IMG/VR virus record: IMGVR_UViG_2061766007_002158
Reading direction: 5' to 3' (one strand)
Source of the DNA: an uncultured virus (IMG/VR IMGVR_UViG_2061766007_002158)
Lineage: Duplodnaviria; Heunggongvirae; Uroviricota; Caudoviricetes
Length of the DNA: 24,186 bases
In this document: one piece after another, positions 4,160-23,007 of the stretch
How the letters are laid out: each line of letters starts with the position of its first letter
How positions within the stretch are numbered: position 1 is the first letter of the stretch
Notes under the pieces: model-generated
What the model was told of the DNA's origin: nothing
Database searches by the model: none
The model's input: only the letters and a program-made list of their open reading frames with translations
Program-made: the position numbers and the translations under genes

Positions 4160-4525
4160 CGCTCAGCCGGTGGAGCCTACACAGGCTCGGGATGAGCTGG
4201 CTAAGTTCATCCGGACGGCGAGGGCAAAATACAAAGCGGCAGGTTCGGAACTGCGGTACATATCCGTGACGGAATACTGCAACACCAGAATTCACCATCA
4301 CATTGTCATGAACTCCATTGACCCGAGGATCCTTCAAGACGTCTGGGGAGATCGCGGTCAGGTGCGTTCGGAGCAGCTCTACGGGAATGATTTCGCGGGG
4401 CTGGCGGCGTATCTGATCAAAGAGACGAAAAAGACCTTCCGCGAGGACAATGCGCCAAGCAGGAAACGGTGGAACCAGTCCAAGAATTTACGTCAGCCGA
4501 AAGAGATCACCCGGGTGATCTCCGC
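4160..4525 (+). CDS. Rolling-circle HUH-type Rep, central fragment
   Basis: Motif II RIHHHIVM, motif III LAAYLIKE, then WNQSKNL. Confidence 0.8.
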
Positions 4526-4535
4526 NNNNNNNNNN

Positions 4536-4764
4536 TTTCCGGGATGAAAACGCGCCGAGCGGAAAACGATGGAATCAGTCGAAGAATTTACGTCCTCCGA
4601 AAGAGATCGTCCGGGTGATCTCCGCAAAACGATGGGCGGCTGAGCCGAAGGGACGGAAGGGCTACGTTTTGATTACCGACAGCATTGTGAACGATGTGTC
4701 GCCCTTCGGGATTCCGTACCAGCATTACCGTATGGTGGCGGTTACGGAAAAGCGGCGGAATTGA
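4536..4764 (+). CDS. Rep C-terminal fragment (allele)
   Basis: Reads ...KRWNQSKNLRPPKEIVRVISAKRW...GIPYQHYRMVAVTEKRRN*; overlaps in sequence with 4160-4525. Confidence 0.7.
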
Positions 4765-9732: not shown

Positions 9733-10212
9733 TTGCCTATATCATACAAGTGCCCGTATTGCGGCAAGCCCGTTCAGGTGGGGCAAAAATGTGAGTGCAT
9801 TCACAAGGTGCAATCAACAAAAACGATTTACAGACCCACTAAAAAAAGACATTCCAGCGGCGCACGCTCCGGGGCGGTCTACGGGTCGGACCCTATGTAT
9901 CACTCAACCCTATGGAAGCGCCTATGCTCCGAGGCTAAGGAGCATTACAGCCACATGGATATTTATTCGTGGTACGTACTCGGGAAGATCGAAGTCGGCA
10001 CTATCGTCCATCATGTGATCCCGATAAAGGACGATTATGAGAAACGGTTTGACATTGGCAATCTGATTTATCTGACGTATGAAAATCATATATTGATTCA
10101 TCAGATATATTCACAATCAACCGAACGAAAAGCGCAAATGCAGAAGGAATTGATGGATTTGATTCGTCGATGGAATAATGAAAAAGCGCGTGGATTTTCA
10201 CAAGGCGGGTAG
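9733..10212 (+). CDS. Packaging-associated HNH endonuclease
   Basis: N-terminal CPYCGK...CEC; IVHHVIPI...NLIYLTYENHILIH; first late gene. Confidence 0.85.
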   Translation: MPISYKCPYCGKPVQVGQKCECIHKVQSTKTIYRPTKKRHSSGARSGAVYGSDPMYHSTLWKRLCSEAKEHYSHMDIYSWYVLGKIEVGTIVHHVIPIKDDYEKRFDIGNLIYLTYENHILIHQIYSQSTERKAQMQKELMDLIRRWNNEKARGFSQGG

Positions 10213-10300
10213 GGGGGGAGACCCGAAAGTTTCGGCCGGTCTGCCGCGACCGCACGCCCCAGAAAAACTTACGCAAAATTCTAAATAAAATTTTTTTGAG
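10210..10300 (+). other. Probable cos packaging region
   Basis: G-run, GC-rich GACCGCACGCCCC (10248-10260) and an AT-rich tract between HNH and an RBS+ATG at 10316 (presumed small terminase, lost in gap). Confidence 0.5.
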
Positions 10301-10328
10301 GATGCCGGGGTGAGGATGNNNNNNNNNN

Positions 10329-10759
10329 AGACCCGCCGACCATATTTCCTGTAAAATTCTCGGGTCGATGGCATTCAAAACCACATGGTGATGAATCCTC
10401 GTGCTGAGATATTCCGTCACGGAAATATATCTCAGCTCCGAACCGGCAGCCTTGTATTTTGCCCTTGCCGCCCGGATGAATCGTGCAAGCTCTTTTTTTG
10501 CCTCGGAAATGTCCGGCGCCTCGGAGTAAGTGAGCGTGATAAACAAATCACCCTTCCGGAAATTCTCGTTCAACAAAAGCCTCAACTTCATTTCCGAAAT
10601 CCTTTCATTGTTTTTCCTGACCGCTTCCGGCGTAGGATTGCAGTTGGGACCTCTTGGGAGATGTTTCCCGTACCGTGCGGAATAGGTCTTGTAGACCTCC
10701 ACCGTCTGACCGGCTCTATACTCTCTATATATGTACGGCATTGTGTCAGCTTCTTTCAC
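10329..10759 (-). CDS. Rolling-circle HUH-type Rep, N-terminal part
   Basis: Motif I LFITLTY, motif II RIHHHVVL; start GTG 10759 (AAGGAG RBS) or ATG 10741. Confidence 0.82.
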
Positions 10760-10770
10760 TTTTCTCCTTG

Positions 10771-10824
10771 ATGTCGGTAAAATAATACCTTAATCAAGGG
10801 GTCAAGCGGGCGAACCGCCCGCTT
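10771..10824 (-). other. Candidate Rep origin/nick region, copy 1
   Basis: 31-bp segment invariant in 3 copies plus an adjacent perfect 9-bp inverted repeat (10804-10824). Confidence 0.5.
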
Positions 10825-10839
10825 TTTTTGCACAAGATA

Positions 10840-10868
10840 TTGACACGCCGCTCTATATCTGGTATAAT
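10840..10868 (+). promoter_or_regulatory. Consensus sigma-A promoter antisense to the rep operon, copy 1
   Basis: TTGACA (10840-45), 17 bp, TATAAT (10863-68), TG extension. Confidence 0.85.
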
Positions 10869-10874
10869 AAATAT

Positions 10875-10944
10875 AGGTCTTTGGGGTGTGCCAACATCCT
10901 TGATTTTCTGGGCTTGTCCGAGTGGAGTCGGGCAAGCCCTTTTT
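10875..10944 (+). ncRNA. Putative counter-transcribed RNA, copy 1 (5' end approximate)
   Basis: Promoter, 5' hairpin GGGTGT-GCCA-ACATCC, 12-bp terminator stem 10910-10939 and T5. Confidence 0.7.
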
Positions 10945-11139
10945 CTATTTCTTTCGATTTTTCTCTAGCGCGGCTATCATCAGCCGCTCAAATTCAAAGC
11001 GCTGTTCATCCGAGAGGATCGGTGTATTGCATTTCACCTTGAATCGCTCATAGTGCGGGCGGATCAGCGGATGGTTGATGTTTAGCTGATACCCGTATGT
11101 ATTGTCCTTCGTGAAAATACTGGAATCATCTTCAACCAT
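10945..11139 (-). CDS. Small conserved protein upstream of rep (YGYxLNINHP family)
   Basis: Four alleles in the window. Confidence 0.75.
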   Translation of the reverse strand: MVEDDSSIFTKDNTYGYQLNINHPLIRPHYERFKVKCNTPILSDEQRFEFERLMIAALEKNRKK

Positions 11140-11347
11140 GCTTTTCCACCTTCCCTGTGTATTGATTCCGTCCCGCTTCGATGAGCTTCGGCTTGAGATT
11201 TCGCCTGATAATGGCATCGAGAATTCCGTCTGTCCACGTCCAGACTTCCACGGGATTTTCTCTATCTACCCCGTAGGCGTATTTCATAAGCCTTAACGCT
11301 TCATCGGCTGATTTGAGCAGGATTGCCTTAAAATCTTCTTGCGTCAT
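11132..11347 (-). CDS. Small hypothetical protein (MTQEDF family)
   Basis: AAGGAG RBS; alleles at 12254-12472 and 16031-16249. Confidence 0.75.
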   Translation of the reverse strand: MTQEDFKAILLKSADEALRLMKYAYGVDRENPVEVWTWTDGILDAIIRRNLKPKLIEAGRNQYTGKVEKHG

Positions 11348-11375
11348 GCTTGATCTCCTTTTCGTNNNNNNNNNN

Positions 11376-11549
11376 TTTCATTTCCGCAATCCTTTCATTG
11401 TTTTTCCTGACCGCTTCCGGAGTAGGATTGCTATTGGGACCTCTGGGAAGATGTTTCCCGTACCGTGCGGAATAGGTCTTGTAGACCTCTACCGTCTGAC
11501 CGGCTCTATACTCTCTGTATATGTACGGCATTATGTCAGCTTCTTTCAC
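11376..11549 (-). CDS. Rep 5' fragment, allele 2
   Basis: MPYIYREYRAGQTVEVYKTYSARYG... Confidence 0.7.
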
Positions 11550-11630
11550 TTTGTTCCTGAATGTCGGTAAAATAATACCTTAATCAAGGGGCTAAACGGG
11601 CGAACCGCCCGTTTTTTTTCATACAAGATG

Positions 11631-11659
11631 TTGACACTCCGCTTTTTATATGCTACAAT
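11631..11659 (+). promoter_or_regulatory. Antisense promoter, copy 2
   Basis: TTGACA (11631-36), 17 bp, TACAAT (11654-59), TG extension. Confidence 0.8.
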
Positions 11660-11664
11660 ATATA

Positions 11665-11740
11665 GGACGGATGTGTATCAGCATCTTGTTGTCCTTTCTT
11701 ATCTGGGCTTGTCCGAGTGTCAGTCGGGCAAGCTCTTTTT
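11665..11740 (+). ncRNA. Putative counter-transcribed RNA, copy 2 (5' end approximate)
   Basis: AGGAC/GTCCT and GATG/CATC hairpin; terminator stem 11705-11735 plus T5. Confidence 0.7.
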
Positions 11741-11935
11741 CTGTTTCTTCCTGTTTTTCTCTAACGCCGCAATCATCAGCCGCTCGAATTCAAAACGCTG
11801 TGCGTCTGAAAGAATCGGCGTGTTGCATCTTGCCTTGAACCGCTCATAATGTGGCCGAATCAGTGGATGGTTTACATTCAGCTTATAGCCGTACTTATTT
11901 TCGGGAGCGTAAATACTGGAATCGTCTGTAATCAC
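11720..11935 (-). CDS. YGYxLNINHP-family protein, allele 2
   Basis: Homologous to 10945-11139. Confidence 0.7.
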   Translation of the reverse strand: MITDDSSIYAPENKYGYKLNVNHPLIRPHYERFKARCNTPILSDAQRFEFERLMIAALEKNRKKQKKSLPD

Positions 11936-12054
11936 TTTTCCACCTTCCCTGTATATGGATTCCTGCCCGCTTCGATGAGCTTGTCTCTCAGTCTCCGACG
12001 TACAACTGCGTCCAGAATGCCGCTTGTAGCCGTCCAGACTTCCNNNNNNNNNNT

Positions 12055-12264
12055 TTACTCGCTTGCTTTATTCTCTTTCGCTTTCTTCTCAAGCCATGCT
12101 ATCATCAGCCGCTCGAATTCAAAGCGTTCTTCATCTGAGAGGATCGGAGTGTTGCACTTCCTCTTGAACCGCTCATAGTGAGGACTGATGAGCGGATGAT
12201 TTATGTTCAGCTTATAGCCGTAAGGATTCGGATTGGCATAAATGGTTGAATCATCAATTAACAC
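12055..12264 (-). CDS. YGYxLNINHP-family protein, allele 3
   Basis: Homologous to 10945-11139; GTG start. Confidence 0.7.
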   Translation of the reverse strand: MLIDDSTIYANPNPYGYKLNINHPLISPHYERFKRKCNTPILSDEERFEFERLMIAWLEKKAKENKASE

Positions 12265-12472
12265 GTTTTTCCACCTTTCCAGTGTGTGGATTTCTGCCCG
12301 CTTTGATGAGCTTCGGCTTGAGCTTTCGCCTGATAATGGCATCGAGAATCCCGTCCGCCCACGTCCAGACTTCTATGGGATTGTCACGATCCACGCCGTA
12401 GGTGAATTTCATAAGCCTTAACGCTTCATCGGCTGATTCAAGCAGGATTGCCTTAAAATCTTCTTGCGTCAT
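12254..12472 (-). CDS. MTQEDF-family protein
   Basis: Allele of 11132-11347. Confidence 0.7.
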   Translation of the reverse strand: MTQEDFKAILLESADEALRLMKFTYGVDRDNPIEVWTWADGILDAIIRRKLKPKLIKAGRNPHTGKVEKRVN

Positions 12473-12656
12473 GCTTGATCTCCTTTTCGTAGCCCTTACA
12501 GCCGTAAGCAATCGGAATGAAGACAGGCACAGCCGCTTTAATTCCCAGGCAGCTACTGCACGGCTTGTCACGATCATGCAAACAATTATCCGTTCCCTGC
12601 CATCGGCAGGTGGAACATTTACAACCGCTGCACCATTTTGAGAGTTTTCTTGCCAT
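12453..12656 (-). CDS. Cys-rich mini-protein (probable metal binding)
   Basis: CSGCKCSTC...C...CSSC...C; 8 Cys, conserved in the other complete allele. Confidence 0.7.
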   Translation of the reverse strand: MARKLSKWCSGCKCSTCRWQGTDNCLHDRDKPCSSCLGIKAAVPVFIPIAYGCKGYEKEIKHDARRF

Positions 12657-12673
12657 ATTCTCACCGCCTTCCT

Positions 12674-12883
12674 TCAAATCGCCCTAATCACTTCATAGAT
12701 CATAGCTACGCCGGAATCCCCGGTAACGACCACGCGCCGCGTCCCGCCACTCTGAAATGTAATTGTAACGGTTTCCCTTCCGGGTTCCACAGCATATGTA
12801 AGGCTGACAATTTTCCGGCCACCTCTTGTCTGCTGTAGAGCCGGAAGCAAATAATCAAGAATAATCTGCATATCCTCGTCCAT
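12674..12883 (-). CDS. Small hypothetical protein (MDEDMQ family)
   Basis: AGGAGGTGA RBS; alleles at 16559-16761, 16956-17165 and 23120-23286. Confidence 0.75.
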   Translation of the reverse strand: MDEDMQIILDYLLPALQQTRGGRKIVSLTYAVEPGRETVTITFQSGGTRRVVVTGDSGVAMIYEVIRAI

Positions 12884-13217
12884 TTTCTCACCTCCTGACA
12901 ATCAGATAAAACACCNNNNNNNNNNTTTTCCCTTCATTGATAAGGTCTGTTTGATTCCTGGGGAGCATGACCATGTAATCGCCGCTTCTGTATTCATACT
13001 GCTGTCTGTCTGACTTGTATCTGTGCCTGATCTGCTTGTCTACCATCATTGTCNNNNNNNNNNTTGTGAATTTTAGCAAGCGACGCGTCCGGCAGCCTTT
13101 TTGCAATGTCAATGAGCTTGTCGAGATATTCGTTATAAAATCTTTGCTTTTTGCCTCGAAGAATGGAATGAACCGTCGCCCTGTCGCGAATGTTCCTCTT
13201 TATCATCNNNNNNNNNN

Positions 13218-14932
13218 TTCCGCTTCTCTATCTTTCGGCTTGTGATGGAATGTGAGTGAAGCAGTTTTTTGGGATAGAGAACCATAGTGTCTTCCATGTT
13301 GTATTGGAGCGTCCTGCATTCCTCTGTATAATCCAGCCAGTCAGACAGCATGAGTTCAATATTGCTGTAAGTTTCTGTCATCTGAGTGGGAAGATAATCA
13401 AACACTATACGCCGCGTCACCTTTACGCCGAAAACTTCGATGCATTTTTTTAAGCGTGGATACAAGTTCTCAGGTGACGGCTTATTTTGGTCTTTGTCAG
13501 ATTTCATCTTAGCCAGCTTCACCCATTCCACTGCGTCAGGCTCTCCAAGAACCAGTCTGTAAATATCAAGCTGACTATGATTGAAATTGTATTTCCGAAT
13601 AACCTTTATATCGGACTTTCTGACATTGAGAAGCTTGTGCAATCGGCGATCCTGCTTAGTCGCAAACTTTGAGCTTGATAAAGAAACCGAGGATATACGC
13701 CATGAGCCATAACATACATCCCATGCAAGGGTGAATAATTTGGCTTTGACAAGCGCTTCTAACATTGGCTCCATTTTCCAGTGGAAGAGATAGGTTTCGG
13801 GATCGATTTCTCTTCCGTTAATTCTTGTCATGCCTTTCGCCGCTTCTTTAAGCCCTGAATATTCAAAAGGTGTGCCTCTCAGCTCCTGCGTCAAACCTTT
13901 TTGATACAGCGGGAACCAGAACGCTGGGACTGTAGTTGTACCTCCGCTATACCAGTAGTGATCCCGCTCTTCCACATATCTCCAGACTTTTTCTTCACCT
14001 TCACACATTGGGGTATAATGCTTGGATTTTGTGCCGTTGAATGGGATGAACGCTCGTGCATCTTCTGAGATTGTGATTTTTTCTTGTGCTATTATATTTT
14101 CTGTGTGAGTAATGCGGGAACAGGAGTAGAACCTTCTGAGCATCAACCCTGTGCTGATTTTGTTGATAATGACAAAAAATGTTGTCTGCTGAATATCATG
14201 AACCTTTCCCGCCGCTTTGAGAGTGACTTTCTTATGACAATGCGGGCATCTTACCTCGTCGTTGTGTTTATGACCGCCTGCCGCCAGACTGACGATAGAA
14301 TGACAATAACTGCATACGCCCTCAATCTGTTTTCCATGCCGCTTGTAGAAGATATATCGGTGCTTTGTAAACACTTTCTTTCTGACGTAATCCTCAATAT
14401 CAGACGGGATGGGCTTGAGCTGGCACATAAGAGAATTGATATATTGGCGTGTCTTTTCGTGCTGCCGCTGGAGCTTGGTATTTCGGTTTTGGTATTGGAA
14501 GGATAGTATGGCATCAGCAGACCGAATAACTGTATAGCCAAAATATTCAGTGGCAAGTATTTTGTCCGCGCTGCTTGGATAGGATACAAGCTCGGATATA
14601 CTGTATCGTTTGTTATACCATTCGTTATCTGGAATCGCCAGATTTTCAATGCAAGCTTCCGACCATCTTGCCGACGGCGGCAAATAGGTGATATCCCGCT
14701 CGATTTCCCTGTCGCAGAAGATAATCGCCTGTGCGGTTCCAGATTTATCAAACAGCGTTGCTTTCAGAATTCTGCTGTTTTTGATTTTGTGGACTGATAC
14801 ATGCATCTGATAAGCCTTTTCTATTCTGTGCGGTCTTGAATCATATTCATGTTCGGGCAATGCCAGAAGCTCCTTTTTGGTTACGCTCCATCTCGGAGGC
14901 GGTGGAGGTGGATAGATCGAGTTGTCTCTCAT
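13218..14932 (-). CDS. PcfJ-domain protein, divergent allele B (3' end in gap)
   Basis: CSYC...CPHC Zn motif, PMLEALVKA, WLDYTEEC...LYPKKLLHSH; a further piece lies at 12926-13053; follows a PcfK-like gene. Confidence 0.75.
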
Positions 14933-14944
14933 TTCCGATTCACC

Positions 14945-15299
14945 TCACAGAATATCAAAGAGTGAGATGATCTTGTTCTCGCTCTGATCAGCGGGAGCCT
15001 CGGTTTTCTCCTGCGAATTATCCACCGTTTCAACAGGCTTCTCCACGTCTCCGCCATTGATAATAATACGCATATCAAACTTGATGTCGGCTGTAGGAAA
15101 ATAGAACTTGACCGCTCTCTTGTAAACGTCNNNNNNNNNNGGAATTGACAACCGCCTGTGCAAAATCTTCGCTGCTCTCGCAGAACTGTTTCAGCGCTTC
15201 GGCTGTTGGCTTTGCTACAACCTCGCCGTAACGGTTTCCCTTGAATTCTGCGGATTCCTTCTTTATCTTTTCAATAGCCTGATTCTGAATATCGTTCAT
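14945..15299 (-). CDS. PcfK-like protein, allele B (gap inside)
   Basis: MNDIQNQAIEKI...VYKRAVKFYFP...IISLFDIL, homologous to 5047-5448. Confidence 0.65.
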
Positions 15300-15364
15300 A
15301 ATCTTTGTCTCCTTTAAAATCGTAATCGTTTGGGATTTTGCCTTTTTTCAATTTNNNNNNNNNN

Positions 15365-15618
15365 GAGTCTTAATCTCATTTCCGCAATCCTTTCATTGTT
15401 TTTCTTCACTGCCTCGGACGTAGGATTGCAGTTGGGACCTCTTGGGAGATGTTTCCCGTACCGTGCGGNNNNNNNNNNAAGTCTTAATTTCATTTCCGCG
15501 ATCCTCTCATTGTTTTTCTTCACTGCCTCGGACGTAGGATTGCAGTTGGGACCTCGCGGAAGATGCTTTCCGTACCGTGCGGAATAGGTTTTATAGACCT
15601 CCACCGTAGAACCTGCAC
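15365..15618 (-). CDS. Two further Rep 5' fragments separated by a gap
   Basis: ARYGKHLPRGPNCNPTSEAVKKNNERIAEM occurs twice with different synonymous bases. Confidence 0.65.
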
Positions 15619-15713
15619 NNNNNNNNNNNNGCTTTTCTCCTTGATGTCGGTAAAATAATACCTTAATCAAGGGGTTAAAGGGGCAAATTGCCCCTTTTTT
15701 CAAACACAAGATA

Positions 15714-15742
15714 TTGACACGCCGCTGTAGATGTGCTACAAT
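15714..15742 (+). promoter_or_regulatory. Antisense promoter, copy 3
   Basis: TTGACA (15714-19), 17 bp, TACAAT (15737-42), TG extension. Confidence 0.8.
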
Positions 15743-15747
15743 ATATA

Positions 15748-15828
15748 TGCACATAGGTGTGTCAACATCTTGTGTAATCCTTTCTTATCTGTGGGCTTGT
15801 CCGAATTGCAGTCGGGTAAGCCCTTTTT
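15748..15828 (+). ncRNA. Putative counter-transcribed RNA, copy 3 (5' end approximate)
   Basis: TGCACA/TGTGTA and AGGTGT-GTCA-ACATCT hairpin; terminator stem 15793-15823 plus T5. Confidence 0.7.
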
Positions 15829-15831
15829 CTT

Positions 15832-16041
15832 TTACTCGCTTGTTTTCGTCTCTTTCGCTTTCTTCTCAAGCCATGCTATCATAAGCCGCTCGAATTCAAA
15901 TCTTTCCTCATCTGAGAGGATCGGTGTTCCGCATTTCCGCTTGAATCTTTCATAATGCGGGCTGATGAGCGGATGATTGATATTCAGCTTATAGCCGTAA
16001 GGATTCGGGTTGGCGTAAATGGTTGAATCATCAATTAACAC
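15832..16041 (-). CDS. YGYxLNINHP-family protein, allele 4
   Basis: Homologous to 10945-11139. Confidence 0.7.
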   Translation of the reverse strand: MLIDDSTIYANPNPYGYKLNINHPLISPHYERFKRKCGTPILSDEERFEFERLMIAWLEKKAKETKTSE

Positions 16042-16249
16042 GTTTTTCCACCTTTCCAGTGTATGGATTTCTGCCCGCTTGAATGAGCTTGTCTCTCAGT
16101 TTCCGACGTACAACTGCGTCCAGAATGCCGCTTGTAGCCGTCCAGACTTCCACGGGATTCTCCCGATCCACTCCGTACAAATATTTCATCATCTTTAACG
16201 CTTCGTCTGCGGACTTGTTCAGCAGTTCCTTAAATTCTTCATGCGTCAT
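16031..16249 (-). CDS. MTQEDF-family protein (MTHEEF allele)
   Basis: Homologous to 11132-11347. Confidence 0.7.
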   Translation of the reverse strand: MTHEEFKELLNKSADEALKMMKYLYGVDRENPVEVWTATSGILDAVVRRKLRDKLIQAGRNPYTGKVEKRVN

Positions 16250-16433
16250 GCTTGATCTCCTTTTCGTAGCCCTTACAGCCGTAAGCAATCGGAATGTGGA
16301 CAGGCACAGCCGCTTTCATTCCATGACAGCTATTGCAAGGCTTGTCACGATCATGCAGACAATTGTCCGTACCCTGCCAACGGCAGGTAGAACACTTGCA
16401 GCCAGAACACCATTTTGACAGCTTCCTCGCCAT
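16239..16433 (-). CDS. Cys-rich mini-protein allele
   Basis: Homologous to 12453-12656; further partial alleles at 16466-16548 and 16804-16944. Confidence 0.7.
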   Translation of the reverse strand: MARKLSKWCSGCKCSTCRWQGTDNCLHDRDKPCNSCHGMKAAVPVHIPIAYGCKGYEKEIKHDA

Positions 16434-18866: not shown

Positions 18867-19266
18867 NNNNNNNNNNNNNNNNNNNNNNNNNNNNNNNNNN
18901 NNNNNNNNNNNNNNNNNNNNNNNNNNNNNNNNNNNNNNNNNNNNNNNNNNNNNNNNNNNNNNNNNNNNNNNNNNNNNNNNNNNNNNNNNNNNNNNNNNNN
19001 NNNNNNNNNNNNNNNNNNNNNNNNNNNNNNNNNNNNNNNNNNNNNNNNNNNNNNNNNNNNNNNNNNNNNNNNNNNNNNNNNNNNNNNNNNNNNNNNNNNN
19101 NNNNNNNNNNNNNNNNNNNNNNNNNNNNNNNNNNNNNNNNNNNNNNNNNNNNNNNNNNNNNNNNNNNNNNNNNNNNNNNNNNNNNNNNNNNNNNNNNNNN
19201 NNNNNNNNNNNNNNNNNNNNNNNNNNNNNNNNNNNNNNNNNNNNNNNNNNNNNNNNNNNAATATCT

Positions 19267-21346: not shown

Positions 21347-21823
21347 CGCGAAAGGGGTGTCCAAAATCCTGAATAATGAAAAATACATAGGCGTCTACAC
21401 ATACCTCGACACCGTCCGTATCGAGGACGGCATCCCGCCGCTGATCAGCCGGGAACTGTGGGATAAATGCCAGAAACTCCTCGCCGACCACCGGAAATCA
21501 CCCCGAACCGGCACCGCCACCGCTGTCGGGCGTTACATTCTGACCGGGAAATTTTTCTGCGGGAACTGTGGTCATACGATGGTCGCCGGCACGGGAACCA
21601 GTAAAACCGGCAAACGGTACGGCTATTACCAGTGTTCCGGCAAATGTGGCAGAAAGCGCATGAAGAAAGAGCAGATCGAGCAGTTTGTCATAGATAAATT
21701 GGACGAATTTCTGAACGACGAAAATTTCACCCGCACTCTGACCGAAAAGATTATGGAATATCAATCCTCGGTCTATTCCGACGGGCAAAAGGCGGCAGTC
21801 ACCCGCCTGACCAAGCAAAAGAA
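21347..21823 (+). CDS. Large serine integrase fragment (recombinase/Zn-ribbon region), allele 1
   Basis: ILNNEKYIG, PPLISRELW, LTGKFFCGNCG...YYQC. Confidence 0.85.
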
Positions 21824-21833
21824 NNNNNNNNNN

Positions 21834-22355
21834 CGTGATCTGCTGGAAAATCGATAGATTTGCCCGAAACCGCTACGACAGCGCAACGCATAAAGCCAAA
21901 TTAAAAAAGCACGGCATCCGGCTTTTTTACGCGAAAGAATCCATCCCGGAAGGACCCGAAGGCATCATCCTCGAATCGGTAATGGAAGGTTACGCGGAAT
22001 ATTATTCCGAGAACCTCGCTCAAAACGTCAAACGCGGGAATTATGAATCCGCGCTTGAATGTAAAACGCTGGGTCACATGTGCCTCGGCTATCAGACATC
22101 GCCGGAAGGGAGATATGCCATCAATCCGGAAACCGCCCCGACCATCCGCACCATATTTGAAGAATACGCCCAAGGCACGTCATGCGTCGCCATCGCCGCC
22201 GCTCTGAATGAAAAGGGCATCCACACCCTGACCGGCGGCAGCTTCACGGCAAAAGGACTCGCCAAAATCCTGACCAACGAAAAATACATAGGCGTCTACA
22301 CATACCTCGACACGGTACGCATCGAAGACGGCGTTCCCGCGCTGATCAGCCGGGA
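21834..22355 (+). CDS. Large serine integrase fragment (resolvase-like domain)
   Basis: WKIDRFARN, AEYYSENLAQNVKRG, LGY...INPETA; the catalytic Ser motif is lost in the gap. Confidence 0.88.
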
Positions 22356-22365
22356 NNNNNNNNNN

Positions 22366-23007
22366 TCTCGCCAAAATCCTGAACAATGAAAAATACATAG
22401 GCGTCTACACCTATCTCGACACGGTACGCATCGAAGACGGCGTTCCCGCGCTGATCAGCCGGGAGCTGTGGGATAAATGTCAGAAACTCCTCGCCGATCA
22501 CCGCAAATCACCCCGAACCGGCACGGCAACCGCCGTAGGACGTTACATCCTGACGGGCAAATTCTTCTGCGGCGACTGCGGACATACAATGGTAGCCGGA
22601 ACCGGCACCAGCAAGACAGGCAAACGGTACGGCTACTATCAGTGTTCCGGCAAATGCGGCAGGAAGCGCCTGAAAAAAGAGCAAATTGAGCAATTTGTCA
22701 CGGATAAGCTGGATGAATTTTTAAATGATGATGATTTTATAAAAACCCTGACGAGCAAAATCCTCGAATATCAATCCTCAGTCTATTCCGACGGGCAAAA
22801 AGCGGCAGTCACCCGCCTGACGAAACAGAAAAAGGAAGCGGAAAAGGCAAGGGACAATATATTTAAAGCAATCGAGAACGGCATCTACTCCGAGAGCCTG
22901 AAAGCACGTCTGGACACCATCGAATCAGAAATATCAACCCTGACCGCCCTGATAGCAGAAGCGGAAGCCAACTGTCCCATGCTCACCGAAGACCAGATCA
23001 AACTCTA
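22366..23007 (+). CDS. Large serine integrase fragment (Zn ribbon and coiled coil), allele 2
   Basis: Homologous to 21347-21823 and continues into NIFKAIENG. Confidence 0.85.

Follow-up and report, generated by a model that had tools for sequence, protein, structure and literature searches.

Antisense control of replication initiators is textbook knowledge for small plasmids. The portion of PMC5703833 that deals with the staphylococcal RepA_N plasmids describes RNAI of pSK41 as an antisense RNA of ~83 nt whose target lies ~100 nt upstream of the rep ribosome site, and proposes that its binding induces a structure that hides this site rather than covering the site directly. For pC194 and pUB110, the corresponding portion of the same source gives antisense RNAs as predicted and as lying over the translation initiation region (PMC5703833), and RNA-based replication control is described for extrachromosomal mycobacteriophage prophages in the relevant part of PMC7157519. 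Here we report the analysis of a 24,186-nt stretch of DNA from an uncultured virus (IMG/VR record IMGVR_UViG_2061766007_002158), hereafter the window. On its plus strand the window carries a predicted small RNA (sRNA) gene, referred to below as the antisense unit, which lies upstream of rep, the minus-strand gene for a rolling-circle replication initiator (Rep) of the HUH type. Judged by its sequence, the locus has the general layout of a gene for a counter-transcribed RNA, that is, an antisense promoter upstream of rep followed by a terminator, which would together yield a short complementary RNA. We propose that the unit is probably a cis-encoded counter-transcribed sRNA gene that exerts negative control on the synthesis of the phage HUH rolling-circle Rep. 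By analogy with the copy-control RNAs of small plasmids, the sRNA most likely limits the amount of replication initiator.

The antisense unit upstream of rep

The unit separates two minus-strand genes: a small one, the YGYxLNINHP gene, whose stop codon is at 10945–10947, and rep, which starts with the ATG at 10741 or the GTG at 10759. In copy 1, a plus-strand promoter at 10840–10868 (TTGACA-17-TATAAT, 12/12; −35 box 10840–10845, TG 10860–10861, −10 box 10863–10868) is followed by a predicted antisense sRNA of 70 nt at 10875–10944, made up of a 5′ stem-loop (~10876–10905), a terminator (10910–10939) and a T5 tract (10940–10944). Copy 2 (11631–11740, plus strand) has its promoter at 11631–11659 (TTGACA-17-TACAAT with TG, 11/12), its predicted sRNA at 11666–11740 and its terminator at 11705–11735. 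In copy 3 (15714–15828, plus strand) the promoter, again TTGACA-17-TACAAT with TG and 11/12, lies at 15714–15742, the predicted sRNA at 15749–15828 and the terminator at 15793–15823. The sRNA start was assumed, rather than mapped, to be 7 nt past the −10 box, which gives lengths of 70, 75 and 80 nt. A consensus scan of 9800–16400 returned 16 promoter-like sites, the best three of which were these promoters; shuffles of the region held 9.5 such sites on average. All three plus-strand terminators consist of a 12-bp stem and TTTTT. A first, sequence-only reading of this DNA had described the same series of promoter, TG extension, 5′ hairpin and 12-bp terminator with T5, and it was confirmed in every copy.

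Each predicted sRNA folded into the 5′ stem-loop and the terminator, with energies of −34.1, −27.5 and −29.2 kcal/mol (z −5.1, −3.8 and −4.8) that none of 200 shuffles equalled; the reverse complements folded more weakly (−23.9, −13.7 and −19.3 kcal/mol). When the three copies were aligned (alignment A4), all 36 terminator cells were paired on the plus strand. Copies 2 and 3 each had one pair changed on one side only, from G-C to G-U, and one U.G pair was common to all copies; read on the minus strand, the three positions concerned would form A.C or C.A mismatches. The same asymmetry was seen in the relatives described below: in a symmetric count over 27 distinct terminator stems, G.T pairs outnumbered A.C pairs by 23 to 2, a count that is somewhat biased by preselection of the loci with a scan allowing G.T. 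The earlier observation that the G-C to G-U changes keep pairing on the plus strand only thus holds in the alignment of the three copies and in the stems of relatives.

The sRNA covers −134 to −203 relative to the rep ATG and does not reach the rep ribosome site. As no consensus rep promoter is present in the spacer, rep is probably read through from upstream genes, and the sRNA would be perfectly complementary to such a read-through transcript over the stretch 134–203 nt before the rep ATG. Its description as fully complementary to the rep leader is valid only if rep is read through in this manner, and has to be restricted in that the sRNA stops short of the ribosome site.

Conservation among Rep homologues

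The Rep part of the window matched 1585 clusters at 50% identity (E ≤ 0.001). An alignment of the close Rep matches (A3) led to 80 viral loci, which were pooled with earlier loci to give 81 distinct rep-upstream regions of 330 nt from IMG/VR and GTDB; alignment A2 was too diverse for the locus search. These regions were subjected to a strict scan that demanded a promoter with a score of 10 or more and, after it, a hairpin of 6 bp or longer whose T tail ended 35–170 nt further on. The strict unit was found on the antisense strand of 29/81 regions, on the sense strand of 0/81 and in 0/1000 control strand-windows of the same loci, and a relaxed scan gave 46/81, 0/81 and a background of 36/1000, respectively. 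A replication set of 75 loci from bacterial genomes (GTDB) was chosen after the hypotheses had been formed. Among the 71 regions scored in this set, 32 had the strict unit in antisense and none in sense, with one hit in 806 control windows. The sequence-only reading had staked its proposal on promoter and terminator being conserved among homologues, and conserved they are: over both sets the unit occurs in antisense in 61/152 regions (about 40%), in sense in 0/152 and in 1/1806 control windows.

Although the stems cannot be aligned by sequence from one Rep homologue to the next, the position and strand of the unit are conserved. The −35 box starts 59–100 nt before the rep start in 28 of the 29 strict loci of the first set (186 nt in the other), and the terminator ends 54–82 nt past the −10 box. 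Antisense promoter calls were concentrated between −150 and −100 relative to the rep start, where the 81 loci had 70 of them versus 8 sense calls; most other position bins held 1–3 antisense calls each. Sense-strand promoters scoring at least 10 were found in only one of the 81 rep-upstream regions. In the first set the unit was strongly linked to the Rep N-terminus, occurring with M-[PAGS]-Y in 32/34 loci versus 3/27 for other N-termini; this link was much weaker in the replication set (15/29 versus 8/29). Record titles in the replication set named Ruminococcaceae, Acutalibacteraceae, Lachnospiraceae, Eubacteriaceae, Acetobacterium and others. Candidate unit-bearing prophages in cultured hosts are those of Pygmaiobacter massiliensis Marseille-P3336 (L171/L173), Murimonas intestini DSM 26524 (L215) and Eubacteriaceae bacterium ES2 (L163). 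Clostridium phage phiSM101 has a unit-like layout (promoter 9/12, 10-bp hairpin), with a promoter complement that does not match the ribosome site.

Predicted alternative pairings in the rep leader

The −35 box and spacer of the promoter and the first 25–40 transcribed bases are inverted repeats of each other. In the sense leader, this places two segments next to each other, both on the minus strand: arm A (10875–10909), the complement of the 5′ part of the sRNA and, from folding, its probable target, and A′ (also X; 10840–10874), the RNA complement of the sRNA promoter and a candidate for pairing with the translation initiation region (TIR) of rep. The TIR was taken as 10730–10761 (minus strand), with the ATG at 10741 and an alternative GTG at 10759 preceded by AAGGAG. 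Loose or atypical units (L065, L085, L102, L127, L140 and L142) and near-duplicates (L033 and L131) were left out of the pairing counts, and some tests were also run without window copies 2 and/or 3; the start region of copy 3 is broken by a gap.

The A:A′ duplex, formed by the −35 box and spacer with the 5′ part of the sRNA, had a mean energy of −13.8 kcal/mol versus −7.6 for shuffles, and at most 5% of shuffles matched the real value in 22/29 loci of the first set and in 15/32 of the replication set. The A′:TIR duplex (−16.3 kcal/mol in copy 1) had a mean of −16.0 kcal/mol, versus −8.9 for other rep windows and −9.5 for shuffled TIRs. It ranked in the best 10% of natural control windows in 22/27 loci (median percentile 0.01) and in 15/32 loci of the replication set (median percentile 0.13). 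The sense orientation of A′:TIR was the more stable in 18/25 loci and the antisense orientation in 5/25; this count also omits L073 and L111, the two loci without an A′:TIR signal. As they use overlapping positions on A′, A:A′ and A′:TIR are mutually exclusive. When the sRNA target was masked, the predicted accessibility of the TIR fell by more than 0.1 in 10/28 loci and rose in one, and the real A′ gave lower TIR accessibility than shuffled A′ in 21/26 loci. In copy 1, masking lowered it from 0.59 to 0.36, and none of 30 shuffled A′ segments reached the effect of the real one, in copy 1 or in copy 2. Direct pairing of the 5′ part of the sRNA with the rep ribosome site was also considered and discarded, being no better than in controls (median percentile 0.35, best 10% in 9/27). 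Overall, these predictions suggest that the promoter complement could have two alternative partners, the sRNA target and the rep ribosome site, in a pSK41-like switch that would shut down Rep translation.

We therefore favour the following mechanism. The sRNA gene, seated in the spacer between a small upstream gene and the HUH rep of temperate Clostridia phages, beside a pC194-like nick motif, would consist of a constitutive-looking promoter of the sigma-A type with extended −10, a 5′ stem-loop and an intrinsic terminator, its product being ~70–80 nt long here and ~50–80 nt in relatives. In the nascent sense leader, arm A would pair with A′ and leave the ribosome site free. Binding of the sRNA to arm A would release A′, which could then pair with the Shine-Dalgarno and start-codon region of rep across a GC-rich hairpin and the nick motif, thereby blocking translation. 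The outcome would be negative control of Rep synthesis, either as a dose-dependent brake or as a lysogen lock. We infer the transcription of the sRNA, the read-through of rep and the switch from what is directly observed, namely the elements in the sequence, the strand on which they lie, their conservation and the two complementarities. Plasmid-style antisense control of a phage Rep, as put forward by the sequence-only reading, thus gains from the conserved position and strand of the unit, the strand-specific wobbles and the three-way pairing; that Rep would be lowered rests on folding predictions.

Several points weigh against this mechanism. The strict unit is missing from more than half of the Rep homologue loci, including that of Butyrivibrio phage Arawn, whose spacer of only 91 nt leaves no room for it, and some loci are closely related to each other, so that the counts are not fully independent. 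In the replication set both pairings stand out less clearly (median percentiles 0.13 and 0.09) than in the discovery set. The A:A′ palindrome shows no strand bias, antisense being the more stable in 13 loci and sense in 12, with 4 ties (n = 29), so it could be a DNA-level structure. Masking of the target in the full leader of copy 2 gave no drop in accessibility (0.35 to 0.39), and with the GTG start there was no change in copy 1 (0.38 to 0.40) or in copy 2; a local CCTTGAT/ATCAAGG hairpin already covers the Shine-Dalgarno sequence of the GTG start. All energies are thermodynamic predictions. Finally, contigs of three RNA libraries cover only 11171–11337 and not the sRNA, and neither strand nor ends can be read from them.

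Further features were noted in the sense leader. Opposite the sRNA lies a short open reading frame of 10–14 codons, at 10851–10895, 11651–11689 and 15743–15775 (all minus strand), with the products MLAHPKDLYLLYQI, MLIHIRPIYCSI and MLTHLCAYIL, which have only their first residues in common; copies 2 and 3 have AAGAAAGGA ahead of it. From its sequence, it may encode a leader peptide or be a by-product. On the minus strand of copy 3, a TTGACA-16-TATTGT site (10/12) at 15765–15738 overlaps the sRNA promoter back to back, and a sense start there would yield a leader without the sRNA target; among relatives, few sense promoter calls fall at this position (8 calls in 81 loci).

Alternative explanations

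Further elements lie between the unit and rep. A nick-site-like motif, CCCCTTGATTAAGGTATTATTTTACCGACA (30 nt, 10772–10801, minus strand), which recurs identically at 11562–11591 and 15645–15674, is a candidate double-strand origin, and the nick position within it is presumably CTTG/ATA. A related word with the consensus CTTGATAAAGGTATTAACTTA matched at least 13/21 positions in 70/83 leaders; as shuffled leaders score up to 16, single matches at 13–16 are not significant alone, and the weight is carried by the family pattern rather than by any single match. Directly upstream of the −35 box of the sRNA promoter, a GC-rich hairpin with T7 on the plus strand is found at 10804–10830, with equivalents at 11594–11621 and ~15678–15700. 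Three of its nine pairs covary, being changed on both sides among the three copies, and it adjoins the motif in 58 of the 70 motif-bearing leaders. A CTTGAT(A) word by rep with a hairpin nearby is the arrangement expected of a double-strand origin of the pC194/phiX174 type, which the locus may thus contain. CCCCTTGATTAAGGTATTATTTTACCGACA resembles the 36-bp origin sequence of pC194 printed in Appendix B of PMC7072734.

A weak second promoter-like site on the plus strand (TTCACT-17-TAAAAT, 9/12), at 10755–10783 and 11545–11573, points at the GC-rich hairpin with T7 and could yield an RNA of ~40 nt antisense to the nick motif. In relatives, antisense promoter calls are modestly enriched between −50 and +50 (26 calls, 4 bins).

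The unit might instead act as a single-strand origin (sso), a reading that we regard as unlikely. Rep would nick the sense strand at CTTG/AT, the displaced strand would fold the A:A′ hairpin and so rebuild a double-stranded −35/spacer, and the short RNA would prime the lagging strand, as occurs at plasmid ssoA and ssoU or at the minus-strand origin of M13. The unit is indeed directly upstream of the nick motif, the polarity of the RNA is right for copying the displaced strand, and in most loci the promoter and the first 25–40 transcribed nucleotides form an imperfect palindrome, the lack of strand bias in which is what a DNA structure would have and is the main point for a role at the DNA level. 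The single-stranded hairpin rebuilds the −35/spacer in 17/29 loci (at least 10/23 positions); however, the −10 box is in the loop of most hairpins and is not rebuilt. A promoter that has to work on single-stranded DNA would not need a near-perfect double-stranded consensus with an extended −10, and a strong intrinsic terminator with RNA-specific G.U pairs would free the RNA and leave no primer. Moreover, priming would require neither the A′:TIR complementarity nor the preference of this pairing for the sense orientation. Origins of the ssoA kind have conserved RSB and CS-6 words; a word like CS-6 was seen by eye in only 1 of ~27 terminator loops (L032). One could also conceive of a two-in-one module, acting as an antisense RNA switch on double-stranded DNA and, beside the nick site, as a hairpin promoter that primes the lagging strand on displaced single-stranded DNA; we lend this idea little credence, but if it were true, a single element of ~100 nt would link copy control to strand conversion in tailed phages that infect Clostridia of the gut and rumen.

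It is likewise doubtful, and distinctly improbable in our view, that the unit serves to activate or insulate the origin through transcription. A promoter firing away from the origin would drive negative supercoiling into it and help the hairpin to extrude for the HUH nuclease, the terminator would merely protect the upstream genes, and the RNA product would be incidental. HUH initiators require a single-stranded nick site and supercoiling, as set out in the pertinent part of PMC5703833, the −35 box abuts an A/T tract and the GC-rich hairpin by the nick motif at a fixed distance (59–100 nt in 28/29 loci), and the RNA sequence itself is not conserved. This explanation accounts neither for the lasting complementarity of the transcribed 5′ part to the promoter nor for the match between promoter complement and rep ribosome site, which favours the sense RNA.

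Attenuation of the type known for pT181 and pIP501, in which sRNA binding would make the GC-rich hairpin end the sense transcript before rep, is very unlikely. Such a hairpin does lie between target and rep in the 58 leaders noted above, and the alternative A:A′ pairing resembles a pre-emptor. However, of these 58 hairpins 32 have a T tract solely on the antisense side, 7 have one on each side and none has it solely on the sense side, and the sense side of the window hairpin has just 2–3 T in 8; with no U tract on the sense side, termination before rep is unlikely. Lastly, consensus scans alone are no proof of function and the RNA-library contigs leave the sRNA uncovered, but a chance promoter/terminator-like pair, or a terminator of a neighbouring gene, without function of its own is extremely unlikely given the antisense, sense and control counts over both sets (61/152, 0/152 and 1/1806) and given that no plus-strand gene lies ahead of the unit for its terminator to serve.

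Genomic context and carriers

The window is a scaffold of 41 pieces of 63–3403 bases separated by 40 N runs, 36 of which are exactly 10 N; one run is of 393 N (18867–19259). Self-comparison of the window showed adjoining pieces to be versions of the same genes, 75–98% identical and in both orientations; for example, 15365–15468 and 15479–15618 hold the same Rep N-terminal stretch at 92% identity. The three sRNA copies are on separate pieces and are 75–82% identical across the repeated region. Because the scaffold consists of N-joined pieces whose neighbours are diverged versions of the same genes, the copies are most likely strain variants of one locus placed side by side by the scaffolder. 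The sequence-only reading had taken them for three alleles of one prophage, and their coexistence in one prophage is not borne out by a scaffold of stacked variants. Rep fragments are also present on the plus strand (4170–4547). A large serine recombinase (phrog_95) is represented by three fragments on adjoining pieces (21357–23007, plus strand), and its overlapping parts are repeated at 83–96% identity, which points to stacked variants rather than one intact gene. The region 10400–11365 was found in bovine gut and rumen metagenomes: 20 of the 24 runs listed hold part of it, and 13 of these 24, from 11 studies, have at least half of the sampled words. Unitigs of 55–284 bases, which break at variant positions, cover it in the best of the DNA runs.

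Only the N-terminal part of rep is present (10329–10759, minus strand; cut by the gap at 10319–10328). It has the motifs FITLTY and HHHVVL of an HUH rolling-circle initiator and matches PF23343 (4.3e-12) and phrog_3584 (2.5e-37). The YGYxLNINHP gene (10945–11139, minus strand) encodes 64 residues from MVEDD and belongs to phrog_34937, of unknown function; its stop codon abuts the 3′ end of the sRNA. Genes of this kind are found in the window at 10945–11139, 11720–11935, 12055–12264 and 15832–16041 (all minus strand), with products of 64–71 residues that have 31 relatives in a large protein database, and the family is widespread in Ruminococcus and related prophages (L005–L063). In the locus search through this protein, only 9/63 loci have this Rep family, so the unit goes with rep rather than with the YGYxLNINHP gene, and the two are separate modules. 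A role of the protein as a CopG-like, ribbon-helix-helix repressor was considered and rejected: it matches no Pfam family, its AlphaFold model (pLDDT 77) consists of two helices, and Foldseek found no PDB match at E ≤ 0.001. The contigs at 11171–11337 come from three metatranscriptome libraries of bovine origin. They match the small gene lying upstream of the YGYxLNINHP gene at 90–95%, with a 9-base insertion behind 11288, and DNA carry-over is possible.

Elsewhere, the window encodes serine-type integrase fragments (phrog_95), helix-turn-helix repressors, an HNH endonuclease, a DUF3102 protein and PcfJ-like proteins. Family matches of the Pfam and PHROG type revealed no recognisable capsid or tail gene in the window. 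Five homologous IMG/VR records of 38–43 kb (three provirus, two linear) have CheckV completeness values of 52–100%, and a Phage_portal match over the cut-off was obtained in two of them; the earlier designation of the carrier as tailed is therefore not supported by the window itself, and by a portal in only two of these five records. Cultured phages with a Rep relative include the Butyrivibrio phages Arawn, Idris and Closwp03 (41%), the Clostridium phages phiSM101 and PhiS63 (38–40%) and Latilactobacillus phages. Four Clostridium perfringens "plasmids" of 38–40 kb (H14–H17, L149) carry the Rep relative that phiSM101 also has and look like episomal phage genomes filed as plasmids. Searches for close DNA relatives of the window gave no match among phages or plasmids, the terminator pattern had no match in viral and genome contigs, a 24-nt origin word had none in metagenome contigs, and a Rep protein scan of metagenome contigs returned only relatives at 41–42%.

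The antisense unit recurs in a large Rep family, its carriers being phages of Ruminococcaceae, Lachnospiraceae, Eubacteriaceae and related gut and rumen bacteria. A comparison with Rfam 15, its plasmid ctRNA and antisense families included, which the sequence-only reading had called for, yielded no match at the gathering score in the window (only sub-threshold rows at chance level, E ≤ 10, in 10600–16100) and only a tRNA in 20 homologous loci, so that no family matched the unit in the window or in relatives. When full texts were searched for antisense or counter-transcribed RNAs in connection with rolling-circle replication of phages, the papers returned dealt with plasmids or with unrelated phage topics, and none described this arrangement. 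What appears to be new, on the basis of modelled pairings, is that the RNA complement of the sRNA's own promoter may pair with either the sRNA target or the rep ribosome site, an economical design in which the complement of a promoter would double as a regulatory arm of the RNA. If correct, our proposal would add an unannotated class of sRNA to hundreds of phage genomes and provide a simple handle on the timing of prophage replication.

Comparison with described systems

Comparisons with PMC5703833 and PMC7157519 refer to the portions of these sources that treat the systems named. The proposed sRNA most resembles pSK41 RNAI in having two stem-loops with a short spacer, a distant target in the leader and a proposed induced sequestration of the ribosome site (PMC5703833); one leader segment is likewise predicted to be able to pair with either the antisense target or the ribosome site. 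It differs from pSK41 in that the initiator is an HUH rolling-circle Rep (PF23343/phrog_3584) rather than RepA_N and the carrier a temperate phage of ~40 kb, in that the complement of the sRNA promoter itself would serve as the anti-TIR segment, and in that the two RNAs share no sequence or Rfam relation.

As with RNAI/II of pT181 and RNAIII of pIP501, the promoter of the counter-transcript is within the leader, its target is well ahead of rep, the leader offers alternative pairings of the pre-emptor kind and a hairpin immediately precedes rep (PMC5703833). Unlike in those plasmids, the hairpin has no sense-side U tract in the window and in 51/58 relatives. The operon-like row in which a small gene is followed by an antisense RNA and a rolling-circle rep, as well as the single-stranded 5′ end of the RNA, recall RNAII/CopG of pMV158, in which RNAII starts inside repB and covers the region by the ribosome site (PMC5703833). 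Here, however, the promoter is 99–127 nt upstream of the ATG and upstream of the origin, the RNA runs away from rep, and the YGYxLNINHP protein matches neither a CopG-like fold nor anything else.

Like pC194 and pUB110 (Rep_1), the locus has a nick-type motif, CTTGAT(A/T)A..GG.TA, directly upstream of rep (PMC7072734, Appendix B); unlike in these plasmids, Pfam assigns the Rep to PF23343 and not to Rep_1, and the sRNA stops short of the initiation region. Lastly, a phage that borrows RNA-based replication control of the plasmid type has a parallel in the mycobacteriophage prophages (PMC7157519); as far as that account goes, the hosts there are different, no HUH Rep is involved and the prophages are extrachromosomal.

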